From Chloroflexota bacterium (lineage in GTDB: Bacteria; Chloroflexota; Dehalococcoidia; SHYB01), in assembly GCA_016875535.1 (NCBI GenBank), contig VGPF01000002.1:73856-137855 (forward strand): a stretch of DNA of 64,000 nucleotides, given 5' to 3'. A program made the position numbers and the translations under genes. The notes beneath the pieces are model-generated. The model was given only the letters and a program-made list of their open reading frames with translations, made no database searches and was not told the origin of the DNA. This document shows, piece after piece, positions 7,153 through 43,245 of the stretch; position 1 is the first letter of the stretch, and each line of letters opens with the position of its first letter.

Positions 7153-9639
7153 CTATGCGCCCGGCCTCGCCGAGCCGTTTTCCTTTGCCTGCTCGCTCTG
7201 ACCTGTCGCCCCTGCCGCCTTGGCCGCTGCAGCCTGCGCCTTCGCGAACTCCTCCAGACGCTTCTCCACCAAATGATTGATGGTGCCTTCCGGGAAGTTG
7301 CCCTGCCCATCGCGCTCGCCAAAGGGAAGACCAGTCAAGAGCTCAACCCCCTCGGCGATTGTGCCGACGGCATAGATGTGGAACTGGCCTTGCGCCGCCG
7401 CCTCCACCAAATCCTCCCGCAACATCAAGTTGCGAACGTTCTGCTTGGGAATCATCACGCCCTGCTTGCCTGTGAGGCCGATAGCCTTGCAGACGTCAAA
7501 GTGCCCCTCTACCTTCTGGTTCACGCCGCCGATGGGCTGGACCTCCCCCTTTTGGTTCACGGAGCCGGTGACGGCGATGCCCTGCTTGAGCGGAACGCCG
7601 GAGAGGCTTGAGAGGATGGCGTAGATCTCCGTGGAAGAGGCGCTATCGCCGTCAATCCCCTCATACGATTGCTCAAAGCTCACCGTGGCAGAGATGGAGA
7701 GGGGGCGCTTCTGGGCATACATCCATCCCAGGTAGCCGCTGATCGTCAGCAGCCCCTTATCGAACGTCTTGCCGCTCATCTTAGCTTCCCGGTCTATGCT
7801 GATGACACCGCCGCGCCCAAGGAAGGTCTTTGCCGTGATGCGGCTGGGCTTGCCGAAGGAAACATCGCCCAGGTCAAAGACGGCCAGCCCGTTCACCTGG
7901 CCCACCTCGCTGTTCGTCACATCCACCATCAGCGTCCCTTCCTGGATCAGTTCCTGGATGCGCTCAGACACCAGGTTGGATCGGAAGATCTTCTGCTCCA
8001 GCGCCTTCTGGACGTGCGCAGCCTTCACCACGTCCGCGTTGTCCTTGCGCGCCCAGAAATCGGCCTCGATCAGCACATCCAGCAGGAGGCCGAAGCGCGT
8101 CGAAAGTTTGGTCTGGTCGGAGACGATGCGCGCCGCATACTCCACCACCTTCGCCACTCCCGAGGAATCAAGGTGCTTCAACTTGTTCTTCTCGCAGGCG
8201 CTGCAGATAAAACCGGCGTAGGCATCTAAGTTGTTCAGCGTGCGCGGGATCTGGTAGTCAAAGTCCGCCCTGACCTTGAAGGTCTCCCAAAAGTCTTCGT
8301 CGTACGCGGCAAGCAGGTGATAGAGCGAGGCATCCCCCGTCACCACTACCTTCACCTCAAGGGGCATCGGCTCCGGGCGGAGGGTCTGCGGCGCGATGAG
8401 CCCCATCGCATCCATGGGGTCCTCCAAGCGCACCTCCTTATTCTTCACCACGCGCTTGAAGGCCTCCCACACCAGCGGCGCCATCAGCACCTGGCGCATG
8501 TTGAGCACCAGGTAGCCGCCGTTCGCCTGGTGGAAGGCCCCCGGCTTGATAAGCGTGTGGTCGGTCACATAGGCGCCCATCAGGAACTTGCGGTCTATCC
8601 TGCCGAAGAGGTTGGCGTATGTGGGGTTGCTCTCTGAGACAATCGGCGGCCCCTTGGAGGCAGAGTTATCCACAAAGACGTTGACCACGAAGGGGACGAG
8701 CAGCTCCCGCTCCCGGGCGGCTCGCGCCGCCTCCAGCATGGGCGAGGAGGGCTGGCCGTCCTGCCCATCGCGGATGACGTCCATGTGGGAAAGGACGAAC
8801 TCCCGCAGGCGTTTGAGAAAGTCGCCCACCTCTTCATACTGGCCGAACTCCTTCTCCACCTCTTTGAAGGAGCCTGAAGTGGAAAACTCCGCCACCTTCC
8901 GGTCAAGCTCTTCCAGCCTGGCTCCCGCATCGCGCTCCACCTGCTGGGCGCCCTCCAGCGTCTGCTGCACAAGCCCGCTCAACGACCTGCGTCGCTCGTC
9001 CAGGGCGCGCTTCAGTTCGTCCGGGAACTGGGCGAACTCCTCTGGAGTCGCGGGGCGCCCCTCCTTCGTCATCGGCACCAGCGCGATGCCCATCGGCGTC
9101 AGCTGAACGGTGAAGCCCTTCGCCCGCGCCTCCCGGTCAAGCTCCTGAAAGAGGCGGCGCTGGTTCGTCTGCCCGCCCTCAAGCGTCGCCCGCCGCTCCG
9201 CCTGGTACTCCTCGCTGGAGAAGGCGGCGGCGGCGTGCTTCCGCAGGTCGTCTTCCAACTGCTCGAGCTTTGCCTTGAACTCGCGGCCCTTGCCCGCAGG
9301 CAGCTTCACGATGTTCGGCTTGTCAGTGTCTGCAAAGTTGAAGAGGTAGCACCAGTCCGGAGGAGAAGCCGCCGTCCCTGCCGCAATCTTCTTGGCCACC
9401 ACGTCCTCTAAGTGCTGCTTCACGATGGTGGACTTGCCCGTCCCCCCCAGGCCGGTGACAAAGATGTTGTACCCGGGCTGCTCCACCCCCAACCCGAACT
9501 CGATGGCGCCGATCGCCCGCACCTGCCCCACGAACTCCTGCAGCGGCACCAGCTCGTCCGTGCAGCGGAAGGAAAAGGCCTTCTGGTCGCAGCGCCACCG
9601 CAGCTTGTCAGGCGTCAGCTCCAGGTGGTGACCTTCCAT
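7153..9639 (-). CDS. Lon-like ATP-dependent protease (AAA+ ATPase plus C-terminal Lon S16 protease domain; COG1067 type)
   Basis: Walker A VTGLGGTGKST; C-terminal Lon protease fold with …GIDGDSASSTE… catalytic Ser context and …KVEGHFDVCKAIG…; AAAGGAG SD. Confidence 0.85.
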   Translation of the reverse strand: MEGHHLELTPDKLRWRCDQKAFSFRCTDELVPLQEFVGQVRAIGAIEFGLGVEQPGYNIFVTGLGGTGKSTIVKQHLEDVVAKKIAAGTAASPPDWCYLFNFADTDKPNIVKLPAGKGREFKAKLEQLEDDLRKHAAAAFSSEEYQAERRATLEGGQTNQRRLFQELDREARAKGFTVQLTPMGIALVPMTKEGRPATPEEFAQFPDELKRALDERRRSLSGLVQQTLEGAQQVERDAGARLEELDRKVAEFSTSGSFKEVEKEFGQYEEVGDFLKRLREFVLSHMDVIRDGQDGQPSSPMLEAARAARERELLVPFVVNVFVDNSASKGPPIVSESNPTYANLFGRIDRKFLMGAYVTDHTLIKPGAFHQANGGYLVLNMRQVLMAPLVWEAFKRVVKNKEVRLEDPMDAMGLIAPQTLRPEPMPLEVKVVVTGDASLYHLLAAYDEDFWETFKVRADFDYQIPRTLNNLDAYAGFICSACEKNKLKHLDSSGVAKVVEYAARIVSDQTKLSTRFGLLLDVLIEADFWARKDNADVVKAAHVQKALEQKIFRSNLVSERIQELIQEGTLMVDVTNSEVGQVNGLAVFDLGDVSFGKPSRITAKTFLGRGGVISIDREAKMSGKTFDKGLLTISGYLGWMYAQKRPLSISATVSFEQSYEGIDGDSASSTEIYAILSSLSGVPLKQGIAVTGSVNQKGEVQPIGGVNQKVEGHFDVCKAIGLTGKQGVMIPKQNVRNLMLREDLVEAAAQGQFHIYAVGTIAEGVELLTGLPFGERDGQGNFPEGTINHLVEKRLEEFAKAQAAAAKAAGATGQSEQAKENGSARPGA

Positions 9640-9771
9640 AGCGCTCCTTTCGGCGGCCGCCGAAGGCGGGGGCCTTGCCGTCAGTCAATCATAGTTACGC
9701 CTTATACCTGTTGCAAGGGAAATAGCCGTGTGCCACAATGGGTCGCCCCAGGCTTCTATCAGGAGAAAACG

Positions 9772-12192
9772 ATGCCGAAGATCTGCGAAGGTTTGACGGT
9801 GCTGGATGTCAGCCAGGGCATGGCCGGCAGCCTTGCCACCATGGTGCTGGCCGATGCCGGGGCAGAGGTCATCAAGCTCGAACCGCCATCCGGCGATAGC
9901 TTCCGCTCCCACCCCGCCTCTATCATGTGGAACCGCGGCAAGAAGAGCGCCATCCTGGATCTAAAGACATCCCAAGGCAAAACTGCTTTCCAATCCCTGG
10001 CCAAGACCGCCGATGTCGTTGTCTATAGCGGCATGCCGGACGGCGATGCTCGCCTGGGCATAGACTATGCCGCCCTCTCCAAGACCAACCCCGGCCTGGT
10101 CTACTGCAAGATCACCGGCTTCGGTCCCCTCAAAAGCCTCGCCCACCTCAAGGGCTATGACGCCATCGTCAACGCCAAGACGGGCCGCATCCACTCCTTC
10201 GATAAGCAGCTCCCCAAGGACGGCCCCCGCTACGCCGCCGTCATGTGCGGCAGCTATGGCGCCGCCATGCACGCCATCCAGGGCGTCATGGCCGCCCTTT
10301 ACGCCCGCGATAAGTACGGGAAGGGCCAGAAGGTGGAGACCAGCATCACCCAGGGACTCTTCGCCTACGATTGGGGCTGGCTCGGCTGGCAGACGGCGCG
10401 CCGCTCCGCGCTGCCGCCCGCCTTCGTTACCGGCTCTCCCACGCCCCAATACTTCGTCGGCCGCACCAAAGATGGTGTCTGGCTCCAGGGCTCCAACTCC
10501 ATGTCTCATCTCTTTGTAAACTTCCTGGTGGGCATGGAGCTTTCGGAAGTCCTGGCCGAAGAGCGCTACCTGAAACTGCCGAATATCCCTCCCGGCAAGG
10601 ACATGGAAGAGCTCTACGAAAAGATGCACGCCCGCATGCAGGAGAAGACCGCCGATGAGTGGATGGATATCTTTGTGAACAAGGTGGACGCCGCCTGCGA
10701 GCCCTTCCGCACCACCCAGCAGGCCCTCGATCACCCACAGGTCATCCACAACGGGAACGTCATCGAGCTCTTCGACCCAGCCGTCGGCAAGACGCGCCAA
10801 CTCGGCCCCATCGTCAAAGCCGCCGATACCCCCCTGGAGCCACAGGGCCCCAGCCCTGCCCTGGGCCAGCACACCCAGCAGGTGCTGGACTCCATCAAGG
10901 CGCGCAAGCCTAAGGTCTTCGCCAACGGCAGAAAGATGGCCAAACGCCCCTTGGAAGGCGTCACCATCGTCGAATTCGCCACCTGGTTCGCCGCGCCCTT
11001 CGGCACCGCCCTCCTGGGCGAGCTCGGCGCGCGCATCATCAAGTTCGAATCCCTGGACGGCGATTCCTTCCGCCGCTGGGCCAACACTGCCACCAAGCCC
11101 ATGCAGGGCAAGAACAGCATCGCCGTGGACCTCAAACAGCCCGAAGGACAGAAGATCGCCCATACCTTCATCAAGAAAGCCGATATCCTGATGCACAACT
11201 TCCGCCCCGGCGTCACGCCGCGCCTGGGCATTGACTATGAGACGTGCAAGAACCTCAACCCGCGCCTCGTCTACCTCTACGCCGGCTCCTACGGCTCCAC
11301 CGGCCCCATGGCCCACCGCCCCGCCATGCACCCCATCCCCGGCGCCATCTGCGGCGGCGCGCTCTACCAGGCGGGCCAGGGCATGCCGCCCCCGCGCGAT
11401 AAGAAACTCGTCTATAAAGAGCTCCGCGAGATGAGCAGCGCTCTCTTCCAGGCGAACGAAGGCAACCCGGACGTCTCATCCGCCCTCGGCGTCGCCACGG
11501 GTCTCCTCCTGGGCCTCTACGCCCGCGAAAAGACCGGCAAAGGCCAGTACCTGGAGACCACCATGATCGGCTCCTGCCTCTACGCAGAGGCCGATGACGC
11601 GATCCAGTATGCCGGCAAGCCCGAGCGCGCTCTGGCCGATCCGCAGCTCAACGGCCTCAACGCCCTCTACCGCTTCTACAAGGCCTCCCAGGGCTGGGTC
11701 TTCCTCGCATGCCCCACGGAGAAGGAGTGGCATGACCTCTGCGAAGCCATCGGCAAAACGGCCCTGGCCAAGGACCCGCGCTTCGCCGCCAAAGAGGCCC
11801 GCCGTAAGCATGACGCCGACCTCGTCAAAGAGCTGACGCCCATCTTCGCCCAGCGCACCGCCGCACAGTGGGAGGTCATGCTCGCCGAGCATGGCGTCGC
11901 CTGCGCCGAGGCGCGCGACAAGGACTTCGCCGATTTCTCAAATACCGATCCGGAGATGCGCAGCGCCGGCCTGTGGGTGGAGACCAAGCACCCATCCCTG
12001 GACGTCTATCATCGCTACTCCGCGCCCATGACCTTCTCCGACCAGGAGACGGTCCACGGCCCCACCATTTACGTCGGCGAGCACACGCAGCAGCTCCTCA
12101 AGGAGGTCGGCTACAGCGATCAGCAGATGAACGACCTCAAGCAGCGCAAGGTCGTCACCTGGTCCACCCGCGAAGCCGACGACGAGGCATAG
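9772..12192 (+). CDS. tandem-duplicated family III CoA-transferase (two CaiB/BaiF domains fused)
   Basis: N-terminal domain MPKICEGLTVLDVSQGMAGSLATMVLADAGAEVIKLEPP and second copy LEGVTIVEFATWFAAPFGTALLGELGARIIKFESL; supplied ORF start 9412 overlaps the Lon-like gene, true start taken at ATG 9772 with AGGAGA SD. Confidence 0.85.
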   Translation: MPKICEGLTVLDVSQGMAGSLATMVLADAGAEVIKLEPPSGDSFRSHPASIMWNRGKKSAILDLKTSQGKTAFQSLAKTADVVVYSGMPDGDARLGIDYAALSKTNPGLVYCKITGFGPLKSLAHLKGYDAIVNAKTGRIHSFDKQLPKDGPRYAAVMCGSYGAAMHAIQGVMAALYARDKYGKGQKVETSITQGLFAYDWGWLGWQTARRSALPPAFVTGSPTPQYFVGRTKDGVWLQGSNSMSHLFVNFLVGMELSEVLAEERYLKLPNIPPGKDMEELYEKMHARMQEKTADEWMDIFVNKVDAACEPFRTTQQALDHPQVIHNGNVIELFDPAVGKTRQLGPIVKAADTPLEPQGPSPALGQHTQQVLDSIKARKPKVFANGRKMAKRPLEGVTIVEFATWFAAPFGTALLGELGARIIKFESLDGDSFRRWANTATKPMQGKNSIAVDLKQPEGQKIAHTFIKKADILMHNFRPGVTPRLGIDYETCKNLNPRLVYLYAGSYGSTGPMAHRPAMHPIPGAICGGALYQAGQGMPPPRDKKLVYKELREMSSALFQANEGNPDVSSALGVATGLLLGLYAREKTGKGQYLETTMIGSCLYAEADDAIQYAGKPERALADPQLNGLNALYRFYKASQGWVFLACPTEKEWHDLCEAIGKTALAKDPRFAAKEARRKHDADLVKELTPIFAQRTAAQWEVMLAEHGVACAEARDKDFADFSNTDPEMRSAGLWVETKHPSLDVYHRYSAPMTFSDQETVHGPTIYVGEHTQQLLKEVGYSDQQMNDLKQRKVVTWSTREADDEA

Positions 12193-29475: not shown

Positions 29476-30504
29476 GTGCCGCAGGATCTCCGGACGGCCG
29501 ATTTCGACTACCATCTGCCGCCGGAGCTTATCGCCCAGACACCTATCGAGCCGCGCGACCATTCGCGCCTGCTGGTGCTGAACCGCCGGGACGGCTCCAT
29601 CGAGCACCGCCGCTTTTTCGACCTGCCGTCCTATCTCCGCAGCAACGATCTGCTCGTCTTCAACGATAGTCGGGTTATCCCGGCACGCCTCCTCGGGCGA
29701 AAGGCGGGCTCCCAGGGCAAGGTAGAGCTTCTCCTGCTCCACCGGATAGGACCGAAGCGCTGGCAGGCGCTAGCCAAGCCTGGAAGGCGGTTGGGCCCTG
29801 GCATCAAGGTGGAGATCGAAGGGGCAAAAAAGCAGTACGTCCTCGAAATCGAGTCGAAGAGTGGCGATGGCACGGTGATCGTGCGACTCGACGACGAAGG
29901 CGTGATCGAGGAGTGCGGGCATGCGCCGCTGCCGCCGTACATCCAGGAGCGCCTCAGCGACCCGGAGCGCTATCAGACGGTCTACGCCCGGGTGAAGGGG
30001 AGCGCAGCGGCGCCGACGGCGGGGCTGCACTTTACGCCGGAGCTTTTGCAAAGGATCCAGCAACAGGGCGTGAAGTTCGCCTTCGTGACACTGCATGTTG
30101 GACTGGATACCTTCCGCCCAGTGGACGAGGCGGACCCGCGCGAGCATGTTATCCACAAGGAGTACTGCGAGCTCCCGCTGGAGACGGCAAGGGCCATCGC
30201 CGAGAGGCGCAAGCGGGGCGGGCGGATCATCGCGGTGGGGACGACGACGACGCGGGTGCTGGAGACGGCGGCAAAGGCGGGAGGCGTTGCCCCCTGGAAC
30301 GGCTGGACTTCGACCTATATCCTGCCGGGCCACACCTTCAGAGCGGTGGACGCCCTCATCACGAACTTCCACCTGCCGAAGTCAACGCTGCTGATGCTGG
30401 TGAGCGCCTTCGCGGGGAAGGCCTTGATTGACAAGGCCTACCGGGAGGCGATAGAACAGCGGTACCGCTTCTATAGCTTTGGGGATGCGATGCTGATTGA
30501 GTGA
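29476..30504 (+). CDS. queA: S-adenosylmethionine:tRNA ribosyltransferase-isomerase
   Basis: …DFDYHLPPELIAQTPIEPRDHSRLLVL… and …GRIIAVGTTTTRVLE… QueA signatures; GTG start. Confidence 0.92.
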   Translation: MPQDLRTADFDYHLPPELIAQTPIEPRDHSRLLVLNRRDGSIEHRRFFDLPSYLRSNDLLVFNDSRVIPARLLGRKAGSQGKVELLLLHRIGPKRWQALAKPGRRLGPGIKVEIEGAKKQYVLEIESKSGDGTVIVRLDDEGVIEECGHAPLPPYIQERLSDPERYQTVYARVKGSAAAPTAGLHFTPELLQRIQQQGVKFAFVTLHVGLDTFRPVDEADPREHVIHKEYCELPLETARAIAERRKRGGRIIAVGTTTTRVLETAAKAGGVAPWNGWTSTYILPGHTFRAVDALITNFHLPKSTLLMLVSAFAGKALIDKAYREAIEQRYRFYSFGDAMLIE

Positions 30505-30509
30505 ATGAA

Positions 30510-32489
30510 ATGCCTACACCAGTTGCACGTTCATTCTATTCAAACTCGATAGCAAAATTCCTCACGGAGGAACCTAGCCAAATTCTAGGCAAGCTAGCTG
30601 CGGCTAGTTCCTCCGACGACACTGGCGACCAGAAGAATGCCTGGCTGGAACAAATTAGGCTTCTGCAAAGAACTCTCCCCCCATTTCAACGCGGCCACAT
30701 TCTCTTCGAGTACTCGATCCCAAGAATCGGGAAGCGTATAGACAACATCATAATTCTAGATGGCATCATATTCGTCATCGAATTTAAGGTTCGCAGTTCG
30801 GGAGAAGCAAAACACCAGCTTCCTGATATTGAACAAGTCACCGATTACGCCCTCGACCTCAAGTACTTTCATTCCGCAAGCAGAGATGCCCCGATCATTC
30901 CAATCCTCTTTGATACCCATGCTCAATCGGCAAAGACTGAAGTTCGCATTGCCGAGGACATGGTTTCTAAATGTCTGCCAGCAAATCAAAGCACATTCGA
31001 AGATGTTATGAAGTCGGTGCTAAAGAAGGTTCCAGCCTCACACCTAGACCCGGTTACCTGGGAACGAGCCCATTACAGCCCTACTCCGACAATTATCGAA
31101 GCGGCGTGTGAGCTCTACAGAACCCACGCCGTCTTAGAGATTTCTCGCTCCGACGCAGCAAACCTTACTGAGACAACGGATGCCCTGTCACTGATCATTA
31201 GAGAAGCGAAGTCCAGCTCGCAGAAGTCGATCTGCTTTGTTACAGGAGTCCCAGGATCAGGCAAGACGCTTGCTGGATTAAACCTGGCTATAGCGCAACA
31301 AAATCAGGCCACTGACGAACACGCCACCTTTCTTTCTGGCAATGGCCCCTTGGTTCAGGTTCTTCAAGAGGCGCTAGCCAGATCTACAACTAAAGAGTCA
31401 CAAATCAAAACGACGAAGAAAAGCGCCCTCCGGAAGGTTAATGAGTTCGTCCAACCAATCCACCGCTTTCGTGATGAGGGTCTAAGAGATTTAGAGACTC
31501 CACCTACGGAAAAAGTGATTATCTTTGATGAGGCTCAAAGAGCGTGGAGTCAAGAGCAAACTGCAGACTTCATGAGAAGAAAAAGAAAGCAAGCCGATTT
31601 CTCGCAATCTGAACCTCAGTTCCTTATTAGCTACGTGAATCGTCACAAGAATTGGGCTGTCGTCATCTGCCTGGTCGGCGGGGGCCAGGAAATTAACACC
31701 GGTGAAGCAGGACTCTCCGAATGGTTCAAAGCCTTGGCTACGACATTTCCGGATTGGCACGTGCATGTCTCTGATAGACTTACTGACTCGGAATATGCCG
31801 TAGACGAGATTTTTTTCAAGAGCATCAACCCTTCAAAGTTGCATATCAATAACCACTTACATTTGGCCACTTCTATCAGATCTTTTCGATCTGAACATGT
31901 CTCCAATTTTGTGAAGGCTTTGCTTGATTGCGACATCGCTACCTCAATCGAGATGAAAAAGGCACTGAAAGAGAAATACCCACTAGTGCTGACACGCAAC
32001 CTCGATAGAGCAAAAGAATGGGTAAAGACAAACGCACGAGGGTCAGAGCGCTATGGATTGGTTGCCTCGTCAGGGGCCAAACGGCTAAGACCCTTAGGAA
32101 TCACAGTTCAAGCAGAAATTAATCCAGCAAATTGGTTCCTAAATCCATCATACGATGTTAGGTCATCATATTACCTTGAAGAAGTTGCTACAGAATTTGA
32201 TGTCCAAGGGCTTGAACTCGACTGGACCATCGTTGGATGGGATGCCGATTTTCGGTTCACCGAAGGAGCATGGCGCACTCTCTCATTCAGTGGCTTTAGC
32301 TGGAAGCAAATCAAGAGTCCAGTCCAGCAAGGCTATCGAAAGAACTCTTATCGTGTGCTTCTAACACGTGCTCGTCAGGGCATGGTAATATTCATCCCCC
32401 TGGGGGACTCCAGAGATAACACCCGGCGACCTGAATTCTACGACGGTACTTACAACTACCTGCGGCAAATCGGTGTTGAGGAAATCTAG
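30510..32489 (+). CDS. DUF2075/Schlafen-like P-loop NTPase (SF1 helicase-like) with N-terminal PD-(D/E)xK nuclease-like motif; horizontally acquired, candidate defence protein
   Basis: GC ~47% vs ~63% flanks; Walker A VTGVPGSGKT, DEAQ box KVIIFDEAQRAW, motif-VI-like YRVLLTRARQGMVIF; N-terminal …RIDNIIILDGIIFVIEFKV… D…ExK. Confidence 0.8.
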   Translation: MPTPVARSFYSNSIAKFLTEEPSQILGKLAAASSSDDTGDQKNAWLEQIRLLQRTLPPFQRGHILFEYSIPRIGKRIDNIIILDGIIFVIEFKVRSSGEAKHQLPDIEQVTDYALDLKYFHSASRDAPIIPILFDTHAQSAKTEVRIAEDMVSKCLPANQSTFEDVMKSVLKKVPASHLDPVTWERAHYSPTPTIIEAACELYRTHAVLEISRSDAANLTETTDALSLIIREAKSSSQKSICFVTGVPGSGKTLAGLNLAIAQQNQATDEHATFLSGNGPLVQVLQEALARSTTKESQIKTTKKSALRKVNEFVQPIHRFRDEGLRDLETPPTEKVIIFDEAQRAWSQEQTADFMRRKRKQADFSQSEPQFLISYVNRHKNWAVVICLVGGGQEINTGEAGLSEWFKALATTFPDWHVHVSDRLTDSEYAVDEIFFKSINPSKLHINNHLHLATSIRSFRSEHVSNFVKALLDCDIATSIEMKKALKEKYPLVLTRNLDRAKEWVKTNARGSERYGLVASSGAKRLRPLGITVQAEINPANWFLNPSYDVRSSYYLEEVATEFDVQGLELDWTIVGWDADFRFTEGAWRTLSFSGFSWKQIKSPVQQGYRKNSYRVLLTRARQGMVIFIPLGDSRDNTRRPEFYDGTYNYLRQIGVEEI

Positions 32490-32537
32490 AGTCCCTTCCG
32501 TTTACCCCTCCGCACTTTTGTTTTACACTAGAGCCCT

Positions 32538-32798
32538 ATGCGTGACCTTGAACTCTTAGCGCAGGAGCATTTCAAGCTCTGCCATGCCGAATCGCCACGG
32601 CACCGGGCGGAGCTCATCATCTGGTATGCAGACGTCGGCGTGGCAGTCGAAGGACAGAACGTCCAGTACCACTGCCCCGTGTGCGGCAAGATCGTTCATT
32701 CAACGGTGGACGAATTCGTCCACCACGAGACGCGCTGGGGCCTCACGTGCCCCGAGTGCAGGGCGAAATCGGAGTCTCGCCCCGGAGGCACAGACTAG
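32538..32798 (+). CDS. small hypothetical protein with two CxxC pairs (zinc-ribbon-like)
   Basis: 86-aa ORF, CPVC…CPEC; immediately downstream of the low-GC island. Confidence 0.5.
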   Translation: MRDLELLAQEHFKLCHAESPRHRAELIIWYADVGVAVEGQNVQYHCPVCGKIVHSTVDEFVHHETRWGLTCPECRAKSESRPGGTD

Positions 32799-32800
32799 CC

Positions 32801-33034
32801 ATGGCCGTGAAAGCGTACATCCTCGTTTCGACGGAGCCGGAGCACACGGCGCAGCTTCACGCCAAGCTGAAGAAGCTGAAACGCGTCAAAGAAGTCCACG
32901 AGGTGATGGGCCCCTACGATATCGTGATCGAGGTGAAGGCGAAGGAGCTGGCCGAGGTCACAGACCTCCTCCGGAAGTCCATCCGCCCGATGACGGGCGT
33001 TCGCAACACCACCACCTGCGTGGCGATGAACTAG
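32801..33034 (+). CDS. stand-alone Lrp/AsnC C-terminal (RAM) domain protein
   Basis: MAVKAYILVSTEPEHT…VKEVHEVMGPYDIVIEVKAKELAEV… RAM-domain pattern; start 3 nt after upstream stop. Confidence 0.65.
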   Translation: MAVKAYILVSTEPEHTAQLHAKLKKLKRVKEVHEVMGPYDIVIEVKAKELAEVTDLLRKSIRPMTGVRNTTTCVAMN

Positions 33035-33122
33035 CCGAGGACGCACCGAGTTACCCCGGCAGCCCTGCCCGGGCTTGCTTGCATCTCCTATACTGGGCGG
33101 ACCCCATCCGGTGAGGTTCGCC

Positions 33123-34358
33123 ATGACTACCCAGGATTTCGCAAAGCAGTTGGCAGACACGCACGCCAAGATCACGGACGAAGGCATCGCCAAGTTCCGA
33201 GAGCGCATCGGAGTCGTTGTGCCAAGGGAGAAGCCCTACAACGAGTACGCCGCCATTGACAGCATGCGCCACTTCGTCGAGTCCTACGGCGGTGACAACC
33301 CCCTCTACACCAATCCGGAATACGCCAAGGGCACGCGCTGGCGCAACATGATCGCCTCCCCCGAGTTTCTGACGACCACCGGCGTCAGCGAGGTCAAGGA
33401 GATACGGCCGGAGATCCGCAAGCGCGGCGAGCACGCCCTGGCGGGGGTCCACGAGTTCTTCTCAGGCGACGAGTGGGAGTGGTTCGCCCCTGTCTATGCC
33501 GGGGACTCCTTTATCCGCCGCTACTACCTCTATGACGTTGTGGAGAAGGAGCGGAGCCAGTTCTCCGGCGGCCGCTCCGTCATCACCAAGTACCGCTCCG
33601 ACTACATCAACCAGCGTGGAGAGCTTGTCGCCACGGACCGCTTTTATTTCATCAAAGTGGAGCGGGATGCCGCGGTGAAGACGGGGAAGAACAAGCACAT
33701 CGAGCGGACGCGCTACACGGTCGAGCAGATCAAAGAGATGGACGAGGCCTACAAGAACCAATTCCGTCGCGGGGCGGATGTGCTCTACTGGGAGGATGTG
33801 AAGGTGGGCGATAGCCTGCCGGCCCTAGTGAAGGGCCCCATGACGCTGACAGATATGATCGTCTGGTGCCGTGGCTGGGGCGGCGGCATGCAGCACACCA
33901 GGAACGCCTGGAAAGACCGCTCGCGCCATCCCAAGTTCTACTCCTTGAACGAGTGGGGCGTGCCGGACATCGTCGAGCGGGTGCACTGGGACGACGCCTG
34001 GGCGCAGAAGATCGGCAACCCGCGCGCCTATGATTTCGGCCGCATGCGCAGCGTCTACCTCTCCGAGCTGGTCACCAACTGGATGGGCGACGACGCCTGG
34101 CTATGGAAGCTTTCCAGCCAGTTCCGCGCCTTCAACTTCATGGGCGATGCCACTTGGTTCAAGGGCAAGATCACCGGGAAGAGCGTGACACCGGAAGGCA
34201 ACCACATCGTTGAACTGGAGCTGTGGGGAGAGAACGAGCGCCACGAGGTTACGGCCCCCGGGAACGCCACGGTCATCCTCTGCTCCCGCGAAAAGGGGCC
34301 GGTGCAGCTGCCTCGGCCTTCGGCGAAGACGGAAGGGACCGTGCCGCTGATATACTAG
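33123..34358 (+). CDS. hotdog-fold (MaoC-like) dehydratase/hydratase family protein, ~411 aa
   Basis: Coding-like long ORF; double hot-dog-like length and Trp/Gly-rich C-terminal half; family call tentative. Confidence 0.6.
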   Translation: MTTQDFAKQLADTHAKITDEGIAKFRERIGVVVPREKPYNEYAAIDSMRHFVESYGGDNPLYTNPEYAKGTRWRNMIASPEFLTTTGVSEVKEIRPEIRKRGEHALAGVHEFFSGDEWEWFAPVYAGDSFIRRYYLYDVVEKERSQFSGGRSVITKYRSDYINQRGELVATDRFYFIKVERDAAVKTGKNKHIERTRYTVEQIKEMDEAYKNQFRRGADVLYWEDVKVGDSLPALVKGPMTLTDMIVWCRGWGGGMQHTRNAWKDRSRHPKFYSLNEWGVPDIVERVHWDDAWAQKIGNPRAYDFGRMRSVYLSELVTNWMGDDAWLWKLSSQFRAFNFMGDATWFKGKITGKSVTPEGNHIVELELWGENERHEVTAPGNATVILCSREKGPVQLPRPSAKTEGTVPLIY

Positions 34359-34362
34359 GCGC

Positions 34363-35007
34363 ATGCCTCTGAAGCTCATCGTCTACTCGGACTACATCTG
34401 ACCCTGGTGCTACCTCGCCCTGGACCGGGTCGAGCGGCTGGAGAAGCAGTACGGCCTAGAGGTGGAGTGGCGCGCCTTTGAGCTGCATCCCGAGATCCCG
34501 CCGGAGGGGCGCGTCCTTACCCGCGACCCGGATCGCGTAAAGGCGGGGCGCGAGCGCCTTCTGAAAGCGGCGGCGGAAGACGGCGTGGAGATGCGCTTCC
34601 GCGAGCGAACCTCCAATTCCCGGCTGGCGCTGGAGGCCACAGAATATGCCCGCGACCAGGGCAAGGCCAACGGCTTCCACCACGCCCTCATGAAGGCCTA
34701 CTGGGTTGAGACGCGGGACATCGGCGACAGCGACGTTTTGACGGATGTGGCCGCGGCCTGCGGGCTGGACGCCGCGGAGCTGCGCCAGGCACTCACGGAC
34801 AGGCGCTACTCGGAAGAAGTCCAGCACCAGATAGACCTGGCGCGCCAGTTCAACATCTACGCCGTACCGTCCTTCATCTTCAGCCACAAGTTCCTGGTCC
34901 AAGGCTGCCAGCCGTACGACGTCTTCGAGCGCATCATGGAGGAGCATGTCCTGCCGGACGCCAGGGCGGCAAGGGGCGAGGCACAGAGCGAAGATAGCGC
35001 CTCGTAG
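34363..35007 (+). CDS. DsbA/FrnE-like thiol:disulfide oxidoreductase with in-frame TGA in the CxxC position (candidate selenoprotein, U-P-W-C)
   Basis: MPLKLIVYSDYI-TGA-PWCYLALDRVERLEKQ… continues in frame into the 34462..35007 ORF; TGA at 34399-34401 exactly where the family has the first active-site Cys; hairpin with bulged U begins ~13 nt after TGA. Confidence 0.6.
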
Positions 35008-35031: not shown

Positions 35032-35072
35032 GGAAAAGCAAAGGGCCCGCCGGATCGGCGGGCCCTTTTTGT
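35032..35072. terminator. bidirectional intrinsic terminator (ends DsbA-like gene on + and the 16S transcript on -)
   Basis: A-tract-GGGCCCGCCG-gat-CGGCGGGCCC-TTTTTGTT. Confidence 0.65.
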
Positions 35073-35241
35073 TCACCTTAACCGGAGGATAGTAGAAGGA
35101 GTAGGGGTAAAAAGTTCATTTTGGGAGTTTGATCGAGTTATTACATCAATCAAACTTAGAAAAAGGTGCCTTCCGATCGCTCGGAAGGACCGACCTAGAA
35201 GCTAGCCTCTGGAGCCGAAGCTCCGGAGGAAGACTCCCTAG

Positions 35242-36735
<1,494 letters not shown>

Positions 36736-37631: not shown

Positions 37632-40127
37632 CTACTTCGCCGGCGCAGCCAACTCGGCTCCGGCGACGGCCGGCGCCTCTCCCTGCTCCTTGCGGAGGAT
37701 GATCTTCTCTTCATCGGCATCCACTACAACAGTGTCGCCCGCATCGAACTCACCCTTGAGCACCGCATCCGATAGGGCATCTTCCACCATGTTCTGGATG
37801 GTGCGGCGGAGCGGGCGGGCGCCGTAGGCCGGATCAAAGCCTTTCTTGGCCAGGAGCTCCTTAGCCGCTTGGGTGGCTTTCATGCCCATGCCCTTCTCCA
37901 GCATGGTCTTGCCGACGACGTTGAGCATCAGGCCGACGATCTGCTGGATGTGCTCCTGGCTCAGGGCGTGGAAGGTGACCTGAGAGTCTATTCTGTTCAA
38001 GAACTCGGGCTTGAAGCGGCGCTTCACCTCACCCAGGACCTTCTCTTTCATCTGTTCGTAGGCGCGCTTGGATTCGATCGCCTCGGTGCCCGTCTGCACA
38101 AAGCCCATGGAAGTGCTCTTGCGGATCAGATCGGCGCCGATGTTGCTGGTCATCACGACGATGGCGTTGCGGAAGTCCACCCTGCGACCTTTGGCGTCGG
38201 TCAGGTGTCCATCGTCAAAGATTTGCAGGAGGATGTTGAAGACCTCATCGTGGGCCTTCTCGATCTCGTCCATGAGGATCACGCAGTAGGATTTGCGGCG
38301 CACGGCTTCGGTGAGCTGGCCGCCCTCGTCATAGCCCACATAGCCGGGAGGCGCGCCGACGAGCCGGGCTACGGTGTGGCGCTCCATGAACTCCGACATA
38401 TCGAGGCGGATCATGTTTTCTTCGCTGCCGAACATGAACTCAGAGAGAACGCGCACAAGCTCAGTCTTGCCCACGCCGGTAGGGCCAAGGAAGAGGAAGG
38501 CGCCGATGGGCCGTCGCGGGTCCTTGAGGCCTGCACGGGCGCGGCGGATAGCCTTCGAGATAACGGTGATCGCCTCATCCTGGCCGATGATGCGCTTGTG
38601 GAGATACTCCTCCATCTGGAGGAGGCGCGCCGTCTCTTGCGTGGCCAGACGCGTCACGGGGATACCTGTCCACATGGCTACGACCTGGCTGATGTGCTCG
38701 GCGGTGACCTCCGGGCGCTCCTTGGACTGCTCGCTCTGCCACTCCTTTTCAAGTTGCTCCAGGCGCTCGTTCAGCTTGAGTTCGCGGTCGCGAAGCTCGG
38801 CGGCATACTCGTACTGCTGGCCGCCGATGGCCTCTTCCTTCTCCTTGCGCACCTTTTCCAGCACCTGCATCGCCTCTTTCACGGAGAGCGGCGTGGTGGC
38901 GCTGCTGATGCGCACACGAGAGGAGGCTTCGTCCATCAGGTCAATGGCCTTATCGGGCAGGAAGCGGTCGGAGATATAGCGGGAGGCGAGTTGCGCGGCG
39001 GCGCGCAGAGCCTCGTCCGTGATGGTGAGCTTGTGGTGCTCCTCATAGCGGGCCTTGATGCCGCGGAGGATCTCCACCGTATCGTCAACGCTGGGCTCGT
39101 CCACCGTCACAGGCTGAAAGCGGCGCTCGAGGCCGGCATCGCGCTCCACGTACTTACGGTACTCGTCCAAGGTCGTGGCGCCGATGCACTGGAGTTCGCC
39201 GCGAGAGAGGGAGGGCTTCAGGATGTTTGCGGCATCTACAGCGCCTTCAGCCGCGCCTGCGCCGACCATGGTGTGCATCTCATCAATGAACAGCACACAG
39301 TTGCCTGAGGCCTTGATCTCTTCGATGACTTTCTTCAGTCGCTCCTCGAACTCGCCGCGGTACTTGGTGCCAGCAACGAGCGCGCCCATATCGAGCGTGA
39401 CGAGGCGCTTATTGAGGAGCGTCTCCGGCACTTCGCCACCGACGATGCGATGGGCGAGAGCCTCGACGATAGCCGTTTTGCCTACTCCAGGCTCACCGAT
39501 GAGCACCGGGTTGTTTTTGGTGCGGCGGCTCAAAATCTGAACTACACGTTCGATCTCCTTGTGGCGGCCGATAACCGGATCGAGCTTGCCTGCGCGGGCG
39601 GCAGCGGTCAGGTCAATGCCGAGCTGATCCAGGACCGGTGTGCGCGTTTGGGGGCGCGCCCCCTGGCCTTGCTGCTGGGACATCGTCTGGCTGAGGATGC
39701 GGCTGGTCTCGTTGCGCACCTTCTCCAAAGTGACGCCGAGGCTCTCGAGGACACCTGCGGCAACGCCCTCACCTTCGCGCATAAGGCCGATGAGCAGATG
39801 CTCCGTGCCGATGTAGCTGTGATTGAGGCGGCGCGCCTCGTCAACAGCAAGTTCGATGACCTTCTTGGCGCGGGGCGTCAGGCCGATCTCGCCGGGCACA
39901 GCCTTTTCGCCGCGGCCGATGATGAATTCAACTGCGGAGCGAACCTTGCTCAACTCCACGCCAAGGTTGGAGAGGACACGGGCGGCAACGCCTTCGGTCT
40001 CGCGGGCAAGACCCAGGAGGATGTGCTCCGTCCCGATATAGTTGTGGTTAAAGCGCTGGGCCTCTTCCTGAGCCAGGGAGAGCACCCTTCGTGCCCGCTC
40101 CGAGAATTTTTCGAATCTACTTGCCAT
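37632..40127 (-). CDS. clpC: ATP-dependent Clp protease ATP-binding subunit ClpC
   Basis: Double Clp-N repeats (…[16 protein letters not shown]… twice), two AAA modules ([18 protein letters not shown]), UVR-like linker; start at MASRFEKF with GAGGAG SD. Confidence 0.92.
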
Positions 40128-40247
40128 TGTTTTGGCTCCTCGTCGAAGTATTCCGGGCCAATCCTCGCATCTCCGCACATCCCATTTGCTTCGCCCGCAT
40201 TCGCGGCAAGGTCTCGACCCCCAGCCGCAAGCTATATGCTCTTAAGT

Positions 40248-41492
40248 TTATGCCTGGGGCTGCCCCTCACTTGAGGCAACAGCCTCGGCGATCTGTGCGG
40301 CCATCGCAGTGCTGAGCGCAGGCCGCTCGACCCTTCTGTCGTCTTCGCCGCTCTTGTACTTGGCGAACAACTCCTCCGCTTCGGTCGTCTTCACTTGCTT
40401 GATACTTAATCCGATGCGGCGGCGCTCAGGTTCGATTCGCACAACCTTCACGGCAACCTTATCGCCCTCTCTAACGACATCTTTAGGGTGTTGAACCATT
40501 TTATCTGAAAGCTCAGAGATATGGATAAGGCCCTCGACGGACCCGTCCAACTGGGCGAAGGCGCCGAACGTCGCGAGTTTGCTGATGGTAGCAGGGATTA
40601 TCTGACCGATGGTATACGTGCTGGCCACCGCGGCCCACGGCTCCGCCTGGGTGCGCTTCAGGCTCAAGGCGATGCGCTTGGCCTTCCTGTCCACCTTGAT
40701 GACATAGACATCCACTTCATCGCCAACCTTAACTACCTCTTCAGGAGAACGGACGGACTTCCAGGAGAGCTCCGAGATGTGGATGAGGCCGTCTGCCCCG
40801 CCAAGGTCAACGAAGGCGCCGAAGCTGGTGACGCCGCTGATCCGACCTTTGCGGATATCCCCCTCTTTCAGCTCGTCCATGAGGCGGGTCTTTTTCGCCT
40901 GTCGGACTTCCTGGCTGGCGGCCCGCTCAGAGAGGATCGCCCGATTACGCTTCTTGTTGACCTCGATGAACTTAAGGTGCAGCTTCTTTCCCACAAGGCC
41001 GGAGAGGTCCGGGACCTCCGTGCTCCCGGCAGGCATGCGTGGAACGGAGGATATTTGTGAGAGAGGGATGAAGCCCTGCACGCCCTCCACCATCACGACG
41101 GCACCGCCTCTATTGTGGCCGATGACCTGTCCCTCGATGGCCCCGCCGGATTCGGCGTATTCCTGCAGTTTGCGCCAGCCTACTTCCCCAGCCGCGCGGT
41201 CCAGGGAGAGGATGGCATGCCCCTCTTCAGATTCAGGGCGGATGACGGTTACGACGATCTTGCCGCCGGGCTTGAACTGGTCCCAGGAATCCATCGGCAC
41301 ACTGCGCATCTCACGCGCGGGGACGACCCCTTCCGTCTTCTGGCCGACGTTCACAAGGAGGCCGTCCTTGTCCACCTTCATAATGACGCCGTCTACAACC
41401 TGGCCGCGTTCAAGTGACGTGAAGGTTCGATCAGCTTCATCAAGCAGCCGATCCATCTGGGCGCCGTCATCAGACGGGGGTTTAGTGACCAT
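40248..41492 (-). CDS. rpsA: 30S ribosomal protein S1 (four S1 domains)
   Basis: Four repeated S1 OB-fold domains (…GQVVDGVIMKV…, …IEGQVIGHNRGG…, …IRKGRISGVTSFGAFVDLG…, …GQIIPATISKLATFGAFAQL…). Confidence 0.9.
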   Translation of the reverse strand: MVTKPPSDDGAQMDRLLDEADRTFTSLERGQVVDGVIMKVDKDGLLVNVGQKTEGVVPAREMRSVPMDSWDQFKPGGKIVVTVIRPESEEGHAILSLDRAAGEVGWRKLQEYAESGGAIEGQVIGHNRGGAVVMVEGVQGFIPLSQISSVPRMPAGSTEVPDLSGLVGKKLHLKFIEVNKKRNRAILSERAASQEVRQAKKTRLMDELKEGDIRKGRISGVTSFGAFVDLGGADGLIHISELSWKSVRSPEEVVKVGDEVDVYVIKVDRKAKRIALSLKRTQAEPWAAVASTYTIGQIIPATISKLATFGAFAQLDGSVEGLIHISELSDKMVQHPKDVVREGDKVAVKVVRIEPERRRIGLSIKQVKTTEAEELFAKYKSGEDDRRVERPALSTAMAAQIAEAVASSEGQPQA

Positions 41493-41699: not shown

Positions 41700-41822
41700 G
41701 TGCCCTGGCAGTGGCATATTTTCCGCGGAGACTTCCGTCCCTAGTATCGTCTGCGCTGGTGCGTTTCACTTCCGTGTTCGGGATGGGAACGGGTGGGTCC
41801 ACACCGCTCTGACCACCAAAGC
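41700..41822 (-). rRNA. rrf: 5S ribosomal RNA (solo, not adjacent to 23S)
   Basis: Minus strand GCTTTGGTGGTCAGAGCGGTGTGGACCCACCCGTTCCCATCCCGAACACGGAAGTGAAACGCACCAGCGC…CTGCCAGGGCAC; matches 5S helix I-V pattern and the conserved CCGAAC…GAAGTGAAACG block. Confidence 0.9.
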
Positions 41823-43170: not shown

Positions 43171-43245
43171 GGGGCTGTAGCTCAGCGGTAGAGCATCCGG
43201 TTTGCATCCGGGGGGTCAGGGGTTCAAATCCCCTCAGCTCCACCA
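43171..43245 (+). tRNA. tRNA-Ala (anticodon TGC), CCA encoded
   Basis: Cloverleaf: acceptor GGGGCTG/CAGCTCC with G3:U70 Ala identity pair, D-arm GCTC-AGCGGTA-GAGC, anticodon loop TTTGCAT, T-arm AGGGG-TTCAAAT-CCCCT. Confidence 0.92.

Follow-up and report, generated by a model that had tools for sequence, protein, structure and literature searches.

The 'DsbA-like protein' family of UxxC selenoproteins (COG2761, the FrnE-type COG; PF01323) was described from Sargasso Sea data in 2005 (Zhang, Fomenko, Gladyshev; PMC1088965). Members have been reported from Anaeromyxobacter, Desulfotomaculum reducens and Desulfovibrio (PMC1794560), the family was counted in 41 organisms in 2016 (PMC5029168), and it is named 'DsbA-like protein form 1' in a review of 2026 (PMC13188914). 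A gene located in a 64-kb stretch of contig VGPF01000002.1 (64,000 nucleotides, hereafter the window) shares with this family the PF01323 domain, a UxxC motif with selenocysteine (Sec) in the first position, widespread Cys homologues, and a predicted bacterial SECIS (bSECIS) element with a G in the apical loop directly past the UGA. Owing to its DSBA domain, its Sec/Cys pair and its TGA-bearing orthologues with the frame conserved on both sides, the window gene is, as far as sequence features define the family, a member of the UxxC group known since 2005; the existence of such a group had been stated in the initial annotation and is borne out by the literature (PMC1088965; PMC13188914), where AACY01178397 and NIP15863.1 are published examples, and the likeness is one of described features. 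The host, an uncultured Dehalococcoidia-like member of the Chloroflexota, is unlike the earlier hosts of the family, although loci related to the window gene include those of Peptococcaceae and Myxococcaceae, lineages that figure in the earlier reports.

The closest solved structure was that of Deinococcus radiodurans FrnE (5CNW/5CP1; E = 5e-25, residues 4–186 against 13–209), a cytoplasmic disulfide isomerase/reductase of the DsbA family whose CPWC motif aligned with the UPWC of the window protein. The two proteins have in common the β1–CPWC entry, the helical insertion and the lack of a signal peptide, and differ in that FrnE carries Cys and is 260 aa long, whereas the window protein carries Sec and has 214 aa. 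The C-terminal tail of FrnE contains a CxxxxC motif. In the window protein the Cys/Sec residues are at positions 13, 16, 133 and 182 and the tail (residues 193–214) has none; hence the protein is FrnE-like in fold and active site but not a FrnE orthologue in that respect. No signal peptide was found in the 214-aa product, which begins directly in strand β1, and the protein is therefore probably cytoplasmic, by analogy with FrnE. The only NCBIfam match was below threshold, to NF041057 (Rcas_1661 family thioredoxin-like (seleno)lipoprotein), which scored 47.5 bits where 190 is the cutoff and covered residues 84–194 only. This family shares with the window protein a thioredoxin-like fold and has Sec members in Chloroflexota, but the window protein lacks a lipoprotein signal and belongs to a different family.

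The list of open reading frames begins the window gene at a GTG and yields a 181-aa product. As stated in the initial annotation, the frame is open further upstream, to an ATG, and a TGA is the sole break in the resulting 214-codon frame. Since the frame is closed upstream by another in-frame TGA at 34348–34350, the ATG at 34363 is the sole possible start. The 12 codons that follow from it encode MPLKLIVYSDYI, CCC TGG TGC (P-W-C) stands directly 3' of the internal TGA, and the frame ends at a TAG at 35005–35007. With the TGA read through (U to C), the product matched Pfam DSBA (PF01323) with E = 2.4e-37 over profile positions 2–189 of 191, so that the 12 upstream codons and UPWC complete the domain and are integral to it; a full-length DSBA domain was obtained only with this read-through. 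The 201 codons 3' of the TGA are intact and of high GC3. A product of about 21 kDa had been forecast; this is close to the 20.6 kDa of the shortened ORF from the GTG, whereas the full product has a predicted mass of 24.6 kDa. The ORF-list annotation is thereby corrected: the gene encodes a selenoprotein of 214 aa whose redox site is intact, and is neither a 181-aa fragment nor a pseudogene. The coordinates of the features are given in Table 1.

Table 1. Predicted features of the DsbA/FrnE-like locus in window coordinates
Feature	Position	Strand	Description
DsbA/FrnE-like selenoprotein CDS (predicted)	34363..35007	+	214 codons ending in TAG, codon 13 for Sec, 24.6 kDa predicted
In-frame TGA, U of U-P-W-C	34399..34401	+	site of the N-terminal nucleophilic Cys of CxxC
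Bacterial SECIS-type hairpin (predicted), within CDS	34414..34434	+	CUCGCCC-UGGACC-GGG-U-CGAG, 12 nt past UGA
GTG start of the ORF-list product, 181 aa	34462..34464	+	annotation artefact, not the real start
Intrinsic-terminator-like hairpin	35040..35073	+	13 bp, -26.7 kcal/mol, then TTTTTGTT

A scan of species representatives, in which each species counted with a single genome, found the gene at 80 loci, mostly from Chloroflexota. The active-site codon was TGA in 67, TGC in 12 and TGT in one, and neither TAA, TAG nor any other sense codon occurred at this position among the 80. The hosts were mainly Dehalococcoidia and Anaerolineae, with Thermomicrobiales, Limnocylindria, Dormibacterota, Peptococcaceae and one member of the Myxococcaceae, and the TGA was conserved across Dehalococcoidia, Anaerolineae, Thermomicrobiales, Dormibacterota, Peptococcaceae and Myxococcaceae. 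Relatives found in the scan of genome contigs had at most 60% identity to the window protein, and look-ups of the exact protein hit metagenome contigs only (samples with the organism include ERZ27247963, ERR14822406 and SRR7990525/6). The four closest orthologues (L001–L004; ∼60% identity, Dehalococcoidia MAGs) carry TGA at the same codon in the context SDYI-TGA-P-F/Y-C-Y, with an upstream frame that is open and diverging; the 12 codons before the TGA evolve as protein in the orthologues (VKLTVWSDYI, VKVTIYSDYI). The proposal that a lone nonsense mutation could account for the codon was thus put to an alignment of orthologues and came out negative. The TGA at the active-site codon is, by this comparison of sequences, under selection.

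A search of ∼5.8 billion predicted proteins returned 120 homologous clusters. U-P-W-C aligned with the CPWC or CPFC of about 54 Cys-form clusters, which, together with the alignment to FrnE, bears out the earlier placement of the TGA at the first Cys of CxxC. The N-terminus and the active site were missing from about half of the 120 clusters, and the remainder had CPWC or CPFC. In each of the six closest clusters (56–99% identity) the predicted start lies shortly after the CxxC position, and the entries without an active site start at differing, non-homologous positions just past it. Gene callers were expected from the outset to shorten such genes; since loss of the active site in about half of the clusters is what would be seen if callers stop at the UGA, the statistics of the family and the functions predicted for it are systematically distorted.

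The hairpin that the initial annotation had noted at the position of a SECIS element was recovered as the minimum free energy (MFE) fold of its stretch (-9.1 kcal/mol). Its conserved core consists of 34415–34421 paired with 34427–34433 around an apical loop at 34422–34426 (GGACC). The window sequence can adopt two registers, one with CCC/GGG, a bulged U34430 (U32) and the loop UGGACC (-9.1 kcal/mol) and another with a 1 × 1 internal loop and the loop GGACC (-6.4 kcal/mol). According to the bSECIS model, the apical loop has 3–9 nt with at least one G in its first two positions, the upper stem has 4–16 bp, the spacing from UGA to loop is 16–37 nt, and the MFE is -7.5 kcal/mol or lower (PMC13188914, Fig. 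2). The window hairpin has a loop of 5–6 nt beginning with GG, a stem of 7–8 bp, a spacing of 19–20 nt and an MFE of -9.1 kcal/mol; 63 of the 67 Sec loci pass the limit of -7.5 kcal/mol. The E. coli fdhF-type SECIS is likewise a hairpin within the CDS just past the UGA with a small loop starting G-G, but has no primary-sequence similarity to the window element, which differs from the fdhF-type and bSECIS model also in an unpaired U in the 3' strand of the stem. No Rfam SECIS family matched in the window, and none that was relevant appeared in 34340–34500 at permissive thresholds.

Folding of the single sequence 34399–34460 (62 nt) gave structures no better than those of shuffled sequences (z = 0.12 and 0.60), and support for the SECIS element was therefore sought by comparison across genomes. 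In a gap-free alignment of 64 distinct TGA-bearing sequences (columns numbered with the U of UGA as 1), a recurrent 7-bp helix paired columns 17–23 with 29–35 around a 5-nt loop beginning G24-G25, of which G24 was nearly invariant and G25 invariant. Standard pairs filled 96% of the helix cells, compared with 24–52% after sliding the 3' partners by 1–3 columns, and 36 cells had changed on both sides. The covariation score, uncorrected for phylogeny, was 0.268 against 0.131 ± 0.013 for shuffled alignments and was reached by none of 500 shuffles. Pair 23–29 occurred as A-U (31), U-G (17), C-G (10) and U-A (2), and pair 22–30 as C-G (53), U-A (7) and U-G (3); between the window and its closest orthologues, the outermost pair shows a compensatory change from C-G to A-U. 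Because pair 20–32 is a C/U mismatch in the window sequence and its closest orthologues, the inner stem has no unambiguous register in this subclade.

As the helix lies inside coding sequence, synonymous sites were compared between Sec and Cys forms. All 63 Sec forms had C at columns 18 and 21, both third codon positions, whereas among the 13 Cys forms only 3 had it at column 18 (Fisher p = 3e-10, uncorrected for phylogeny). One Cys form (L035) encodes the identical peptide YVGQGVV and has kept only 4 of the 7 helix pairs. Synonymous sites of the stem are therefore fixed where the gene has TGA and free to vary where it has Cys, which indicates, at the level of sequence comparison, that an RNA-level constraint on the stem depends on the presence of the UGA. 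Part of the covariation signal could be co-variation at the protein level, the stem overlapping codons. Compensatory conservation of the hairpin was found specifically in the TGA genes, phylogeny being uncorrected.

No tRNA-Sec was found in the 64-kb window, where ARAGORN and Rfam at gathering thresholds detected only tRNA-Ala, and Pfam scans of ∼40 of its ORFs revealed no SelA, SelB or SelD domain. A tblastn search of the window and 85 loci for selD and selA was also negative, which is weak evidence as the E. coli probe sequences were unverified. Among 25 in-frame TGAs with GC3-rich flanks in the window, only that at 34399, with its believable peptide and redox motif, was credible, and no second selenoprotein gene was seen there. 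In one Peptococcaceae MAG (L019), the orthologue has a tRNA-Sec 5.6 kb upstream (ARAGORN; Rfam RF01852, 64 bits). In BSepDB, two Dehalococcoidia MAGs rank among the ten most selenoprotein-rich bacteria, with 46–49 genes (PMC13326102). We infer that the host of the window gene decodes UGA through SelB and tRNA-Sec; the gene itself implies that this uncultured Dehalococcoidia-like organism reads UGA as Sec. Genome-wide reassignment of TGA was ruled out: of the window's 59 long ORFs, 21 end in TGA, and many of these 21 have GC3 above 0.8; the frequency of TGA as an ordinary stop shows that the standard genetic code is in use.

The conserved TGA, the Sec/Cys pair and the SECIS element with covariation uphold the selenocysteine reading of the initial annotation, and 34363–35007 is very probably a genuine selenoprotein gene with UGA-encoded Sec at the first Cys of CxxC. 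Were the locus a decaying pseudogene instead, derived from a Cys-form frnE/dsbA-like gene by a TGC-to-TGA nonsense mutation, the shortened ORFs of the gene callers and the lack of visible Sec machinery in the 64-kb window would be accounted for; this is highly improbable in view of the TGA in 67 of 80 species with only TGC or TGT elsewhere and never TAA or TAG, the intact, GC3-rich 201 codons with a full-length domain match, and a downstream hairpin that appears to be under RNA-level selection in TGA forms only. A single wrong base (C to A) would be enough to turn a true TGC into TGA, yet an error of sequencing or assembly is of negligible probability: an independent Logan assembly made from another run (SRR7990526; L005) shows TGA in exactly the same context, by which sequencing error, raised as a caution in the initial annotation, is excluded, a 99%-identical JGI cluster (P0001) is shortened at the same place as the window ORF, and all close orthologues have TGA. 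Two separate products, namely a leader peptide of 12 residues that stops at the TGA and, starting at the GTG, a 181-aa DsbA-like protein without active site, are what standard ORF finding delivers and the form that most database entries take. Such an arrangement is extremely unlikely, as a thioredoxin-fold oxidoreductase without β1 and CxxC would have no catalytic site, the shortened homologues start at non-equivalent positions, the residues from TGA to GTG (PWCYLALDRVERLEKQYGLE) show conservation at the protein level and fit the Pfam profile, and the DSBA domain needs 33 residues upstream of the GTG.

Deliberate recoding of UGA to Cys is reported in some bacteria. At the window gene, the UGA might be read as Cys by a SelB/SECIS-dependent, Cys-charged tRNA-Sec-like tRNA, or as Trp by a near-cognate tRNA; the inserted amino acid is indistinguishable by sequence analysis, Cys forms are functionally acceptable (13 of 80 loci), and the Sec machinery was not seen in the 64-kb window. 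Against this stand the fit of the hairpin to the standard bSECIS model, the standard tRNA-Sec (RF01852) near the Peptococcaceae orthologue, the documented heavy use of Sec by Dehalococcoidia, and the use of TGA as a normal stop in the rest of the window. Decoding as Cys or Trp is without positive support and very unlikely. A 2017 mBio paper on SepRS/SepCysS, considered as a source for UGA-to-Cys recoding in Dehalococcoidia, was set aside because UGA is not its topic.

In the selenoprotein reading, the UGA at 34399 would be bypassed as a stop during translation. The mRNA hairpin at 34414–34434, with its GG loop ∼20 nt past the UGA, would recruit SelB-GTP with Sec-tRNA(Sec) to the ribosome, Sec would be inserted as residue 13, and translation would run 201 more codons to the TAG. 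Sec13 would occupy the nucleophilic N-terminal Cys position of the FrnE CxxC, and Sec13 and Cys16 may cycle between selenol/thiol and selenenylsulfide, a cycle that could reduce, isomerise or form substrate disulfides. We infer this redox chemistry of the Sec-Pro-Trp-Cys protein by analogy. The window gene leaves knowledge of how selenoproteins work unchanged.

According to reviews, Cys forms are in general much the commoner of the two, but in the mostly Chloroflexota sample there were 67 Sec forms and 13 Cys forms. A neighbour-joining tree of 81 genes placed Cys forms among Sec forms, nested at no fewer than five points. Parsimony required about 7 events (6–10 in 25 bootstraps) when only Sec-to-Cys changes were allowed and about 15 (11–24 in 25 bootstraps) when only Cys-to-Sec changes were allowed; the tree is crude and the sample of 81 genes is biased towards relatives of the Sec-form query. 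Five Cys forms (L034, L039, L048, L064 and L067) retain the hairpin in full, with its 7 pairs and its GG loop, and these intact hairpins look like relic SECIS elements. The nesting together with the relic hairpins suggests repeated reversion from Sec to Cys in Anaerolineae, so far as the compared sequences can tell. The wider proposition, that in Chloroflexota the Sec form is ancestral and dominant and the Cys forms were derived ∼6–10 times among the 81 genes, some with a fossil SECIS, is evenly balanced between being right and wrong. Bacterial Sec-to-Cys reversions are rare and concern mainly FdhA and SelD (PMC13188914); if the proposition is true, a thiol oxidoreductase family joins the few documented cases. 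The family forms a well-sampled mosaic of Sec and Cys forms with homologous SECIS elements, convenient for finding out which way, and how often, Sec and Cys are exchanged.

The window and the four closest orthologues have in common the gene order YjeF, ACPS, TenA, FolD, QueA, ... FAS1_DH, DsbA, and the upstream gene with the FAS1_DH domain is common to only eight Dehalococcoidia loci. Among the loci compared, no operon partner was conserved across the family, and no conserved neighbour pointed to a specific substrate or partner. Downstream, a terminator-like hairpin (35040–35068, followed by a T-run) begins 33 nt past the stop codon; it was not among the results of a consensus terminator scanner, and it is the end of the transcription unit ahead of the convergent 16S rRNA gene.

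The search of the public protein collection returned 120 homologous protein clusters, of which about 64 started right past the CxxC; their start codons lie at sites that are not equivalent to one another. The N-terminal truncation of the Sec (TGA) forms by gene callers is systematic in this collection. A CPWA variant was present at full length in one cluster (P0120), and another (P0028) showed the aberrant N-terminus TYSDHTWTDCY, which may have resulted from a frameshift.

Among the loci of related genomes, five Cys (TGC) forms (L034, L039, L048, L064, and L067) were observed to keep all seven pairs of the SECIS stem as well as the GG loop within the first 45 nt from the TGC. These genes were found nested among Sec forms, and their hairpins look like relic SECIS elements. 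Parsimony analysis required ∼7 Sec-to-Cys reversions as compared to ∼15 independent Cys-to-Sec gains, reversion being the route with fewer events. In a Peptococcaceae MAG (locus L019), the UxxC DsbA-like gene is preceded by a tRNA-Sec at a distance of 5.6 kb; the ORFs flanking this tRNA showed no match to unverified E. coli SelA/SelD probe sequences.

Features identified in the window and in locus L019
Feature	Location	Strand	Details
Single 926-aa ORF	window 9412-12192	+	two stretches match CoA-transferase family III (PF02515, E=1.2e-157)
Low-GC3 insertion	window 30501-33114	+	GC3 0.49-0.53 vs ~0.8 in neighbouring genes
Hairpin	window 35040-35073	+	fold: 13 bp, G+C-rich, -26.7 kcal/mol, then TTTTTGTT
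16S rRNA gene, complete	window 35242-36735	-	Rfam
ClpB-like protein gene	window 37632-40178		between 16S and 5S
S1-domain protein gene	window 40248-41492		between 16S and 5S
5S rRNA gene	window 41703-41820	-	Rfam
Interval given together with the rRNA genes	window 43171-43245	+	
tRNA-Sec, anticodon TCA	L019 4344-4427	+	Rfam RF01852, 64 bits

The terminator-like hairpin separates the dsbA-like gene from the downstream 16S rRNA gene, which is convergent to it and has its 3′ end on this side; the hairpin was absent from the output of a consensus terminator scanner. The rRNA genes of the window are unlinked, with 5 kb and the two intervening protein genes separating 16S from 5S, and no 23S rRNA was detected in the whole 64 kb at Rfam gathering thresholds. 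A conserved cluster of spurious "ORFs" suggests that rRNA sequence adjoins the dsbA-like gene in seven related loci too.

Upstream, the low-GC3 insertion, flanked by queA and an FAS1_DH gene, codes for a 662-aa protein with a Schlafen group-3 DNA/RNA helicase domain (PF09848, E=4.5e-82) and has a second ORF of 176 aa without family assignment. At the corresponding place, the Dehalococcoidia relative L001 harbors a MazE/PIN toxin–antitoxin pair and an AsnC regulator instead. The insertion is probably a horizontally acquired island, possibly related to defence. Farther upstream, the CoA-transferase ORF stems from a tandem fusion, or else the mechanical ORF definition has joined two genes.
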